Positions 59,124 to 59,335 of a stretch of 64,000 nucleotides of DNA are shown piece by piece. Location: NCBI GenBank assembly GCA_038249055.1, contig JBBRWS010000003.1:24374-88373 (forward strand), in the 5' to 3' direction. The first letter of the stretch is position 1. Each line of letters starts with the position of its first letter. The notes under the pieces were generated by a model. It saw only the letters and a list, made by a program, of their open reading frames with translations. It was not told the DNA's origin and did not search any database. The translations under genes and the position numbers were made by a program. This DNA comes from Minisyncoccia bacterium. Its GTDB lineage: Bacteria; Patescibacteriota; Minisyncoccia; Phycocordibacterales; UBA9973.

Positions 59124-59335
59124 ATTTTCGCGTGGGTTTTTAGTAATATGTCTTAAGTAGCAAAAATGGCTACACAAGAACGCGACAATTCCTTTCGGAA
59201 CTGCCCTACACACCTTTCGGTGTATAGACCCACGCGAGTAGTTGCGACTTATGTAGCCGTTTTTACTCGCGTGGGATTCTATGTGACCATACTTTAGAGC
59301 AATTCCCTAAAGGTTAGGTTTGTAAATTTATTATA
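59124..59335 (-). promoter_or_regulatory. Candidate cis-regulatory structured RNA leader (riboswitch/attenuator-like) with promoter
   Basis: Minus-sense TATAAT at 59330-59335; ~50% GC island; 12-bp hairpin CCCACGCGAGUA/UACUCGCGUGGG, two GAAA-tetraloop hairpins (ACACC-GAAA-GGUGU, UUCC-GAAA-GGAA), GUAGC hairpin, loop GGCUACA complementary to downstream UGUAGCC, and a third copy CCCACGCGA 4 nt before AUG able to pair with the hairpin 3' arm. Confidence 0.45.

Follow-up and report, generated by a model that had tools for sequence, protein, structure and literature searches.

The minus strand of the 64,000-nucleotide stretch of DNA analysed here (the window) carries, at positions 59184-59320, a full-length member of the catalogued LOOT RNA family (Rfam RF03000), and comparison of this copy with its relatives indicates that it is probably a cis-acting 5′ leader of the downstream gene cluster with two mutually exclusive folds. 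The sRNA label that the family carries is challenged by this evidence. In the Rfam covariance-model (CM) search, the match spanned model positions 1-121 of 121 and scored 62.4 bits compared to a gathering threshold of 46.4 (E = 2.5e-9, with the whole window as the search space). The initial annotation, made from the sequence alone, had matched the element to no known class and was mistaken on this point; its outline had also omitted the 5′ hairpin at 59320-59285, which contains a receptor-like internal loop and is part of the same RNA. Its description of a GC-rich structured RNA running on the minus strand from a promoter-like -10 box to the start codon of a protein with two TM helices was confirmed base by base. 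The P1/P1a, P3, P4 and P5 helices were all formed in the window copy, both in the CM alignment and in an independent MFE fold. The 212-nt RNA had an MFE of -77.1 kcal/mol (z = -7.7), none of 200 shuffled sequences being equally stable, and the GC content of the element was 46-48%, compared to 29% for the window overall and to about 17-25% in the DNA directly adjoining the element. The initial annotation had also proposed a search for homologous leaders with covariation, and about 145 LOOT loci were found, in which P3, a further helix between the P3 interior and the tail after P5 (helix T) and the third copy of the 5′ arm of P3 (a″) covary. The features of the window copy are listed in Table 1.

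Table 1. Features of the LOOT leader and of the gene behind it, in window coordinates
Feature	Position	Strand	Details and basis
-10-like TATAAT	59330..59335	-	10 nt upstream of P1; sequence
P1/P1a hairpin	59285..59320	-	Internal loop CCUAAC 59318-59313 / UAUGG 59291-59287; Rfam alignment
Segment a, 5′ arm of P3, CCCACGCGAGUA	59264..59275	-	Sequence and CM alignment
Helix T 5′ strand, GUAAAAACGGCUACAUAAG	59248..59266	-	Overlaps last 3 nt of segment a; predicted duplex -25.0 kcal/mol
P3 interior, 23 nt	59241..59263	-	Holds hairpin P3a and segment b (5′ strand of helix T)
Segment a′, 3′ arm of P3, UACUCGCGUGGG	59229..59240	-	Predicted to pair with a or a″
P4 hairpin, 9 bp	59206..59227	-	GAAA tetraloop 59218-59215; CM alignment, MFE fold
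P5 hairpin, 9 bp	59184..59205	-	GAAA tetraloop 59196-59193; end of Rfam LOOT model
Helix T 3′ strand (b′), CUUGUGUAGCCAUUUUUGC	59160..59178	-	Includes U-run 59166-59162; family-wide covariation
Hairpin H6	59157..59173	-	GUAGC 59173-59169 / GCUAC 59161-59157; 7-nt loop CAUUUUU; predicted -5.0 kcal/mol
Segment a″, third copy of P3 5′ arm, CCCACGCGA	59128..59136	-	After A-run, at ribosome-binding-site position
First gene of the led cluster, 144 aa	58689..59123	-	Two predicted TM helices; start ATG 59123-59121

The LOOT family came from the Weinberg/Breaker ZWD alignments (PMC5737381), is drawn in Figure 1 of the Rfam 14 paper (PMC7779021) and is typed in Rfam as "Gene; sRNA". No functional work on LOOT was found in the literature, its mentions being those in the discovery paper, the Rfam 14 paper and CaCoFold. 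The loci compared here were gathered from MAGs, mostly of candidate-phyla-radiation (CPR) lineages, and from metagenome contigs by means of patterns in which the bases of receptor and tetraloops were preset, so that the conservation of these bases among the collected loci is partly imposed. The LOOT-bearing MAGs were labelled as Patescibacteria/CPR lineages, together with MAGs labelled Bdellovibrionales, which is the apparent taxonomic home of the RNA. When viral contigs were searched with a consensus-spaced DNA pattern, 12 loci were obtained, none of which was LOOT by Rfam, and a BLAST search of phage genomes with the region returned a single 65-nt AT-rich chance match. No tandem LOOT arrays were seen; most loci had a single copy, as did the 64-kb window.

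The internal loop of P1 in the window was identical to the canonical 11-nt receptor of the GAAA tetraloop, CCUAAG/UAUGG, at 10 of 11 positions, the sole mismatch being at position 6 (numbering according to PMC10243134). Across the family, receptor positions 6 and 7 covaried, being A·C in 97 loci and C·U in 33 loci. P1a also covaried, and the helix was 91% paired on the MAFFT alignment. On the same alignment P4 was 91% paired, with 8 of 8 pairs changed on both sides, and the pairing of P5 was likewise backed by covariation; in both hairpins, base pairs left free by the search patterns were fully formed in almost all loci. The two GAAA-capped hairpins of the initial annotation were both found, but with longer stems than it had given them, each being 9 bp long compared to 8 and 6 bp for P4 and P5 in the LOOT consensus. 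The 12-bp perfect hairpin with a 23-nt loop that it had described corresponds to P3. By direct parsing, P3 consisted of 9-14 contiguous pairs of highly variable sequence in 143 of 144 loci, and its value of 64% paired on the MAFFT alignment is therefore a misalignment artefact. Within the P3 loop of the window, P3a had 5 bp (CGGCU 59259-59255 with AGUCG 59249-59245) compared to 8 bp in the model, and three pairs were flagged as non-canonical. Across the collected loci, P3a was a 4-bp stem, 73% paired; helix T uses the same 5′ strand as P3a.

Helix T is absent from the Rfam model. In the window, GGCUACA (59258-59252) in the P3 loop is complementary to UGUAGCC (59174-59168), and the helix as a whole had 19 pairs over 20 positions with one mismatch. 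Across the family its median length was 17 bp (one mismatch allowed), and a T-run of 3-6 followed it in all loci. The longest complementary run between b and b′ had an own-locus median of about 12-14 nt, compared to about 6 nt when segments from different loci were combined. On the MAFFT alignment, which was made without structural information from about 136 sequences, 14 of 14 pairs of helix T had changed on both sides and were 79-94% paired. None of 500 shuffles equalled the values observed for the structure as a whole, in which pairing fell from 86% to about 45% when the partners were shifted by one column. The initial annotation had read the complementarity of loop and tail as a possible pseudoknot. 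The complementarity does covary in about 136 sequences, but its length bars coexistence with a closed P3: with helix T formed, about 6 of the ~23 nt in the P3 loop stay unpaired, and in 50% of loci the helix reaches into segment a. Its being too long for the closed hairpin indicates an alternative fold and not a pseudoknot added to P3.

The P3 fold and the T fold were predicted to be nearly isoenergetic. With nested-fold energies, which leave out tertiary contacts and pseudoknot penalties, the difference E(T fold) - E(P3 fold) had a mean of +0.6, a median of -0.6 and an sd of 4.4 kcal/mol, on totals of about -60 kcal/mol (n = 135). In the window, the P3 fold was predicted at -79.9 kcal/mol and the T fold at -65.5 kcal/mol; the T fold together with a duplex of a′ and a″ (-18.4 kcal/mol) came to about -84 kcal/mol, not counting a penalty for the pseudoknot loop. 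The GUAGC/GCUAC hairpin of the initial annotation (H6 in Table 1) is present in the window, where it competes with helix T for segment b′. It was rejected as a general family feature and appears to be specific to a subset, since runs of at least 8 occurred in 31% of own-locus compared to 16% of between-locus combinations.

The third copy of the P3 arm was found where the initial annotation had placed it, ending 4 nt before the ATG, and it copies a exactly from the first base of a. Predicted duplexes of a′ in the window were 12 bp with a (-22.5 kcal/mol) and 9 bp with a″. Exact same-sense copies of at least 8 nt were present in 29 of 138 loci, compared to 1 of 138 and 2 of 126 in the controls; they comprised at least 14 different sequences, and their end always lay 0-6 nt before an ATG. 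A duplex of a′ with the translation-initiation region of -12 kcal/mol or better was predicted in 68% of the loci with the architecture of the window, compared to 0.4% of controls. The copy was conserved in the related loci L019, L022 and L013, and in L013 it is joined to a different gene. The initial annotation had proposed mutually exclusive pairing at the start codon from the geometry of the copies; the recurrence of a″ as many different sequences in relatives supports this proposal with comparative data, to be read with the proviso that a″ equals a in sequence, with no wobble-type differences, so that its covariation with a′ cannot separate pairing with a′ from repetition of a. The copy was present in about 7% of consensus-type LOOTs, and a translational layer is thus not general to the family. 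Among loci lacking a″, complementarity between the leader and the start region was marginal (-11.1 compared to -10.2 kcal/mol, p = 0.03) and is not claimed as a feature.

The position of LOOT relative to promoters and genes was that of a leader. The -10 TATAAT of the initial annotation was verified base by base; a full sigma-70 promoter was not called at this site in the window by a consensus scanner, the -35 being weak and only the -10 good. Many loci had promoter-like -35/-10 pairs, which lay about 20-25 nt upstream of P1, and the homology blocks shared with L019 and L013 start at window positions 59341 and 59344, respectively. On the other side, 121 of 126 loci had a same-strand ORF beginning 15-200 nt after P5, and in 89% the start lay within 20-110 nt, compared to 25% at random positions; the AUG in the window is 60 nt past P5. 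From the U-run to the start codon the median distance was about 38 nt, a gap too short for a separate promoter, so that the downstream ORF would have to be transcribed through LOOT. Two unrelated ORFs, that of the window and L019 and that of L013, have the same leader in front of them, up to and including a″ and the AUG, and the identity between the window and L019 was 94% in the leader compared to 74% in the adjacent CDS and 62% in the upstream DNA. The 144-aa protein gave no Pfam family in a Pfam search, and an exact-sequence look-up gave no recorded match for either of the two flanking window proteins. The 118 downstream proteins were mostly without a family, the rest being methylases, nucleases, immunity proteins and secreted proteins. 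The genes were varied, encoding small membrane or secreted proteins, DNA methylases, Mrr/NucS-type nucleases, superinfection-immunity proteins and proteases, and no transport or biosynthesis theme was seen among the 118.

These findings suggest a model in which the leader would alternate between two folds. Fold 1 would be the catalogued LOOT structure, with the P1 receptor hairpin, P3 formed by a and a′, and the GAAA-capped P4 and P5; the 3′ tail and the start-codon region would then be free, permitting read-through and translation. In fold 2, P3 would open and b would pair with b′ directly after P5, giving helix T followed by the U-run in the manner of an intrinsic terminator, and the freed a′ would pair with a″, where the ribosome must bind. 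The predicted outcome of fold 2 is termination of transcription and/or blocked initiation. We infer that helix T terminates transcription and that the a′:a″ duplex blocks translation, and likewise which of the folds is ON. Helix T would be no simple terminator hairpin, its "loop" of about 75 nt holding P4 and P5, and it was not recognised as a terminator by the consensus scanner; in the window it combines a stable predicted duplex with UUUUU (Table 1). P3 is expected to form about 75 nt before b′ is transcribed, so fold 2 may need help, and helix T might form only partially, atop a closed P3. As for what tips the balance, our guess is that the tertiary fold of tetraloop and receptor responds to some factor other than a metabolite, for example a protein, Mg2+ or folding kinetics.

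The Rfam type of the family corresponds to a free-standing, trans-acting sRNA with its own promoter, a body of P1-P5 and helix T plus the U-run as terminator, the ORF being either simply the next gene or a target of a′. The promoter-like box just upstream of LOOT and the resemblance of helix T and the conserved U-run to a terminator agree with this, and the complementarity of a′ to the start region of the neighbour in a subset of loci would be explained equally well by an sRNA targeting that neighbour. Such an sRNA is nevertheless unlikely, given that a same-strand ORF follows soon after the RNA in 96% of loci (median 38 nt past the U-run), that the conserved module, which occurs in front of two different genes, reaches the AUG unbroken, and that a dedicated terminator need not take its 5′ strand from the P3 loop, as helix T does in each of about 136 sequences. 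A static structured 5′ UTR, in which a shortened T is formed alongside P3, the resulting pseudoknot protecting the 5′ end of the mRNA or aiding initiation with no switching, would fit the leader position, the covariation of both P3 and T, the single compact tertiary fold suggested by tetraloop and receptor, and the rarity of Shine-Dalgarno-like sequences in the downstream genes (0 of 24 where a″ is present, 16 of 92 where it is absent). We consider it quite unlikely: with a median of 17 bp, T exceeds what a pseudoknot in a 23-nt loop can hold and enters the P3 arm in half of the loci, the two folds are balanced in predicted energy across the family, and a static fold leaves a″, located where the ribosome binds, without a function. 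GNRA tetraloop-receptor contacts are present in some riboswitch aptamers, and the 5′ UTR position, the alternative pairings and the terminator-like helix would also suit a small-molecule riboswitch with P1-P5 as a metabolite aptamer and T plus a″ as its expression platform. This reading is very unlikely in view of the extreme diversity of the downstream genes and of the conserved unpaired positions, which are mostly those of the tetraloops and receptor and leave little for a ligand pocket except the A-rich J1/3 linker. Of the aptamer/expression-platform or attenuator geometry put forward in the initial annotation, the alternative pairings are thus supported, but a small-molecule aptamer is not indicated, the tetraloop-receptor module explaining most of the conserved unpaired nucleotides and the downstream genes having no metabolic theme in common.

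Two further explanations dispense with RNA switching altogether. If a and a″ were direct DNA repeats at a recombination or cassette boundary behind a portable promoter-leader, this would account for the joining of one leader to different genes exactly at the AUG, for the integrase genes that flank the L013 cluster and for the exact copying of a from its first base. It is highly improbable all the same, since the repeat sequence varies by locus and tracks the P3 stem as RNA pairing predicts, a″ is always at the ribosome-binding position, its presence restores the predicted energy balance of the folds in precisely the subfamily with the longer P3, and no recombinase is consistently linked to LOOT. 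A coding role deserves next to no weight. The six-frame list contains a 174-aa ORF, in which a 30-codon extension starting at GTG 59213 precedes the 144-aa protein, and 96 of 113 loci have an NUG after the U-run, where a short uORF encoding a leader peptide might start. In contrast, the members of all four homolog clusters of the protein are 143-146 aa long and align only from the ATG at 59123, none aligning to the extension, and in L013 and L020 the gene of the 144-aa protein begins 15 nt after another ORF. The initial annotation was therefore right to distrust the extra codons, which are an ORF-caller artefact. The NUG frame, too, behaved like the other two frames in uORF length and stop position (28% compared to 28%, median 10 compared to 9 codons).

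Extending the proposed bistable leader beyond the window, we tentatively suggest that LOOT may be a widespread cis-acting bistable leader in CPR-type bacteria, a portable promoter and leader placed before horizontally mobile defence, restriction-modification and cell-surface genes. Its ON and OFF states would be a tetraloop/receptor fold that holds P3 shut and, opposed to it, the terminator-like helix T with, in one subfamily, the anti-start-codon pairing; the cue would be a global one (protein, Mg2+, or transcription/folding kinetics), not a metabolite. LOOT is one of many orphan structured RNAs from comparative genomics, and it now has a concrete mechanism proposal, that of two exclusive covarying folds, together with a proposed genomic role as the leader of accessory, defence and surface genes. 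To our knowledge, almost nothing is known about gene regulation in the Patescibacteria/CPR and Bdellovibrionales-labelled lineages. For annotation purposes, the false 30-codon N-terminal extension is removed from the downstream gene, and it is suggested that the Rfam LOOT model be lengthened by about 25 nt on the 3′ side.

The window copy shares with Rfam LOOT the helices P1/P1a, P3, P4 and P5 with GNRA loops and the conserved CCUAA...AUGG internal loop, and it differs from the consensus, apart from the longer P4 and P5, in a larger P1a loop, a weak P3a and the three non-canonical pairs. Whereas the Rfam model ends at P5, the RNA continues into the covarying helix T and U-run and, in this subfamily, into the anti-start-codon copy; the authors of the discovery paper may already have noted the terminator-like helix in their supplement. 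The P1 loop, CCUAA(C/A)...(U/C)AUGG, resembles the 11-nt receptor of the GAAA tetraloop known from group I and II introns and RNase P, matching its C1 C2 U3 A4 A5 / A8 U9 G10 G11. GAAA tetraloops as in that module are carried by P4 in LOOT and also by P5 in the window, and a loop may dock into the receptor, either within one molecule or between molecules. In contrast to the canonical receptor, the G6·U7 wobble is replaced in LOOT by the covarying A·C or C·U. The 6/7 step of the receptor tolerates many substitutions, Watson-Crick pairs there being deleterious (PMC10243134), and this tolerance is compatible with the LOOT variants.

LOOT differs from known regulatory leaders in that its terminator-like helix is non-local and encloses about 75 nt with two hairpins, and in that this helix competes with the main stem of the structured domain. 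The genes led by LOOT share no common function, unlike those behind attenuators and riboswitches, and the gene theme expected of a riboswitch was not seen, whereas a 5′ UTR position and exclusive pairings that link a putative sensor domain to a terminator or ribosome-binding site were both found. Like anti-RBS sequestration platforms, LOOT has a segment complementary to the translation-initiation region, and like attenuators and riboswitch expression platforms, it combines a place in the 5′ UTR with two exclusive covarying pairings, one of which ends in a U-run.

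A scan of the whole 64-kb window (1-64000) against Rfam, as proposed in the initial annotation of a structured RNA at 59124-59335, gave a single match above threshold, LOOT RNA (RF03000), at 59184-59320 on the minus strand; no tRNA, rRNA or other Rfam family was found at gathering score. The match reached 62.4 bits compared to a gathering score of 46.4 and covered all model positions (1-121), and the annotated region overshoots the 3′ end of the model by 60 nt. LOOT comes from the comparative-genomics alignments of Weinberg and Breaker, and the CaCoFold paper gives it six helices and about 43 bp, the helices corresponding to P1, P1a, P3, P3a, P4 and P5 of the model. 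No functional study of LOOT was found in the searchable literature. The element in the window is a new member of the LOOT family.

The minus-strand features of the initial annotation were all found in place, the two GAAA-capped hairpins being longer than described (9 bp each), and a fifth hairpin at the 5′ end had been overlooked. The G+C content of the island was 46-48% compared to the window average of 29%, and the 212-nt RNA folded at -77.1 kcal/mol (z = -7.7). A consensus terminator scanner flagged the P5 hairpin and GCGUUCUUGU (59184-59205) as terminator-like. This call, inside the RNA, is probably false; the family-conserved U-run sits 18 nt further downstream.

Features of the LOOT element in the window
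Feature	Position	Strand	Description or basis
-10-like box TATAAT	59335-59330	minus	sequence
5′ hairpin	59320-59285	minus	
P3 arms (a, CCCACGCGAGUA; a′, UACUCGCGUGGG)	59275-59264; 59240-59229	minus	perfect 12 bp, 23-nt loop
Helix T (b, GUAAAAACGGCUACAUAAG; b′, CUUGUGUAGCCAUUUUUGC)	59266-59248; 59178-59160	minus	18 bp with one mismatch; duplex energy -25.0 kcal/mol
GGCUACA, complement of UGUAGCC	59258-59252; 59174-59168	minus	sequence
P4 and P5, GAAA-capped hairpins, 9 bp each	59227-59206; 59205-59184	minus	sequence
GUAGC / GCUAC hairpin	59173-59169; 59161-59157	minus	sequence
a″, third CCCACGCGA	59136-59128	minus	ends 4 nt before ATG at 59123

The doubt expressed earlier about a 30-codon N-terminal extension of the downstream 2-TM gene (144 aa) was justified. 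The 174-aa ORF from GTG at 59213 was rejected as an artefact because all four homolog clusters have lengths of 143-146 aa and no alignment upstream of the ATG at 59123; a leader peptide reading was also rejected. In the related locus L019, LOOT lies immediately upstream of a 2-TM homolog, and a cut-off contig (L022) keeps the same tail and CCCACGCGA-AUG junction. In the L013 contig, a module identical from TATAAT through ...AAAACCCACGCGAAAAUAUG is joined to another gene, of 274 aa, that lies ahead of the 2-TM gene; there and in L020 the 2-TM gene has no leader and lies merely 15 nt after another ORF. Identity between the window and L019 was 94% in the leader, 74% in the adjacent CDS and about 62% upstream of the -10 box, and homology with the related loci sets in either at the -10 box or where P1 starts. 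Two orphan ORFs downstream of the 2-TM gene (56886-57467, 193 aa; 58092-58475, 127 aa) are kept behind LOOT in L019, L022, L027 and L013 with 68-83% nucleotide identity, indicating that the leader heads a conserved multi-gene module. The window cluster adjoins a type I restriction-modification operon (59744-63956), and an HNH endonuclease gene (55270-56391) lies close to where it ends. In two paralogous FG-GAP repeat proteins elsewhere in the window (27357-28718 and 28953-30335), a Por_Secre_tail domain (T9SS-type C-terminal sorting) scored slightly over the Pfam cut-off; such a domain would not be expected in a CPR-type host. The 1156-aa ORF at 9663-13133 (TTG start) matched no Pfam family at E <= 1e-5.

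Further LOOTs were collected with two IUPAC patterns that fixed only receptor bases, tetraloop bases and spacing, yielding 23 loci in genomes and at least 120 in metagenomes; none was found in viral contigs with the consensus-spaced pattern. Complementarity of P4 and P5 was complete in virtually all loci although the patterns demanded no pairing, indicating that these are genuine LOOTs. A covariance model built from them recovered them at 55-144 bits, mostly as a single copy per locus. This model also gave second, weaker matches on the same strand, some 0.7-1.6 kb away from the main copy (L093:869-1008, 38 bits; L055:4184-4296, 36 bits), which may represent divergent or decaying copies. Approximately 40% of the genome matches are TPA MAGs labelled "uncultured Bdellovibrionales" (L023, L024, L029, L034, L036, L037, L039, L044, L045); nearly all others carry labels of candidate-phyla-radiation lineages (Moraniibacteriota, Uhrbacteria, Paceibacterota, Parcubacteria, Buchananbacteria, Adlerbacteria or Saccharibacteria). 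This leaves two readings: LOOT occurs in both groups, or the Bdellovibrionales labels are unreliable.

The LOOT-led proteins were extremely varied and the majority had no Pfam family; those with one included DNA methylases, Mrr/NucS-type endonucleases, superinfection-immunity or Ltp proteins, secreted proteases and cell-wall-binding proteins. Several unrelated ones (L013:3674-4495, L031:4602-5276, L049:286-2358, L079:1409-2389, L086:8333-9550) share an N-terminal motif, A(S/A/V)WWNP(F/L)(T/S)W, right behind a signal-like hydrophobic stretch; the motif is possibly a lineage-specific signal for sorting or anchoring. In L013:1-12945 (also L014-L016), the LOOT-led order is 274 aa, 143 aa, 95 aa, 191 aa, N6_N4 methylase, SLFN_AlbA_2 and ResIII helicase, flanked by two tyrosine-integrase genes, a Bro-N protein and small ORFs with weak Terminase_2 matches; this cluster resembles a mobile defence island. 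At the end of the contig (L013:12-75), beside the Bro-N and integrase genes, lies a perfect palindrome, marked on both strands by below-threshold matches to the mir-7558 model.

In the collected loci, the first ~20 nt past P5 (b′, typically CUGGCGGGGAGCUUUUUGU) were complementary to the P3 interior (b), the longest run having a median of about 12-14 nt within a locus compared to about 6 between different loci. On a MAFFT alignment fitted to no structure (A2), 14/14 pairs of T had changes on both sides, each pair being formed in 79-94% of sequences, equal to P4/P5; the observed values for the whole tested structure were reached by 0/500 shuffles, and shifting the partners by one column brought the paired fraction down from 86% to about 45%. 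In all loci among the matches listed, T is followed by or contains a conserved run of 3-6 U. The loop/tail pseudoknot suggested earlier was thus correct as to complementarity, which covaries family-wide and is much longer than described, but T probably does not coexist with P3. Allowing one mismatch, T is 17 bp long (median), leaves a median of 6 nt unpaired of the ~23-nt P3 loop and, in half of the loci, extends into the P3 5′ arm by about 3 nt; by simple geometry, such a helix should not fit inside the closed loop. P3 itself has 9-14 contiguous pairs in 143/144 loci with highly variable sequence. Both helices are thus under selection and, as they appear incompatible, would have to alternate. 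The two folds were nearly isoenergetic (constrained folding of RNA ending just past the U-run, n = 135), the difference having a mean of +0.6, a median of -0.6 and an sd of 4.4 kcal/mol in a total of about -60.

The third copy, previously proposed to pair alternatively, recurs and covaries with the P3 arm. An exact same-sense copy (>=8 nt) from the first base of the P3 5′ arm was found 30-70 nt past P5 in 29/138 loci, with at least 14 different arm sequences, compared to 1/138 and 2/126 in controls. It is always preceded by an A-run, and 0-6 nt separate its end from the ATG of a long ORF; no Shine-Dalgarno-like motif was found at its position in any of 24 such loci. Among loci sharing the window's 9-bp P4/P5 architecture, 68% had a duplex of a′ with the start region at -12 kcal/mol or better, compared to 7% of consensus-type loci and 0.4% of controls. 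In the window's subfamily, the P3 fold was favoured over the T fold by about 5.5 kcal/mol (median), and in the window itself the P3 fold came to -79.9 and the T fold to -65.5 kcal/mol; counting the a′:a″ duplex (-18.4), the T fold reaches about -84, not yet including a pseudoknot loop penalty. Consensus-type LOOTs were balanced without a″. The modelled energetics are consistent with a role for a″ in this subfamily. With P3 closed, the tail and start region would be free, allowing read-through and translation; with P3 open, T and its U-tract would cause termination and, in the window's subfamily, a′ would capture a″ and block initiation.

A trans-acting sRNA with T as its terminator was considered, as the Rfam type of LOOT is "Gene; sRNA". 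LOOT is instead placed as a leader: a same-strand ATG-ORF of at least 40 aa begins 15-200 nt past P5 in 121/126 usable loci among the matches listed, and 20-110 nt past P5 in 89% of loci compared to 25% at random positions (median 57 nt). The U-run to AUG gap (median 38 nt) is too short for a separate ORF promoter, and many loci have promoter-like -35/-10 pairs some 20-25 nt ahead of P1. A static pseudoknotted UTR and a DNA-level repeat were weighed alongside.

A metabolite riboswitch was likewise considered. In the P1 internal loop, CCUAAC/UAUGG, 10/11 positions agree with the canonical GAAA-tetraloop 11-nt receptor (numbering checked against PMC10243134). Receptor position 6 covaries with 7 (A.C in 97 loci, C.U in 33, seven exceptions, among the matches listed), a step reported to tolerate many substitutions and not Watson-Crick pairs (PMC10243134). 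Part of the conservation of receptor and tetraloop bases in the collected set stems from the search patterns themselves; independent evidence for this conservation comes from the Rfam consensus. This module appears to account for most of the strongly conserved unpaired bases, leaving little for a ligand pocket. Overall, the observation of the initial annotation is confirmed and its switch interpretation partly supported. No prior description of LOOT as a cis-acting bistable leader was found in the searchable literature; the comparative evidence indicates that the family, listed by Rfam under the sRNA type, is such a leader.
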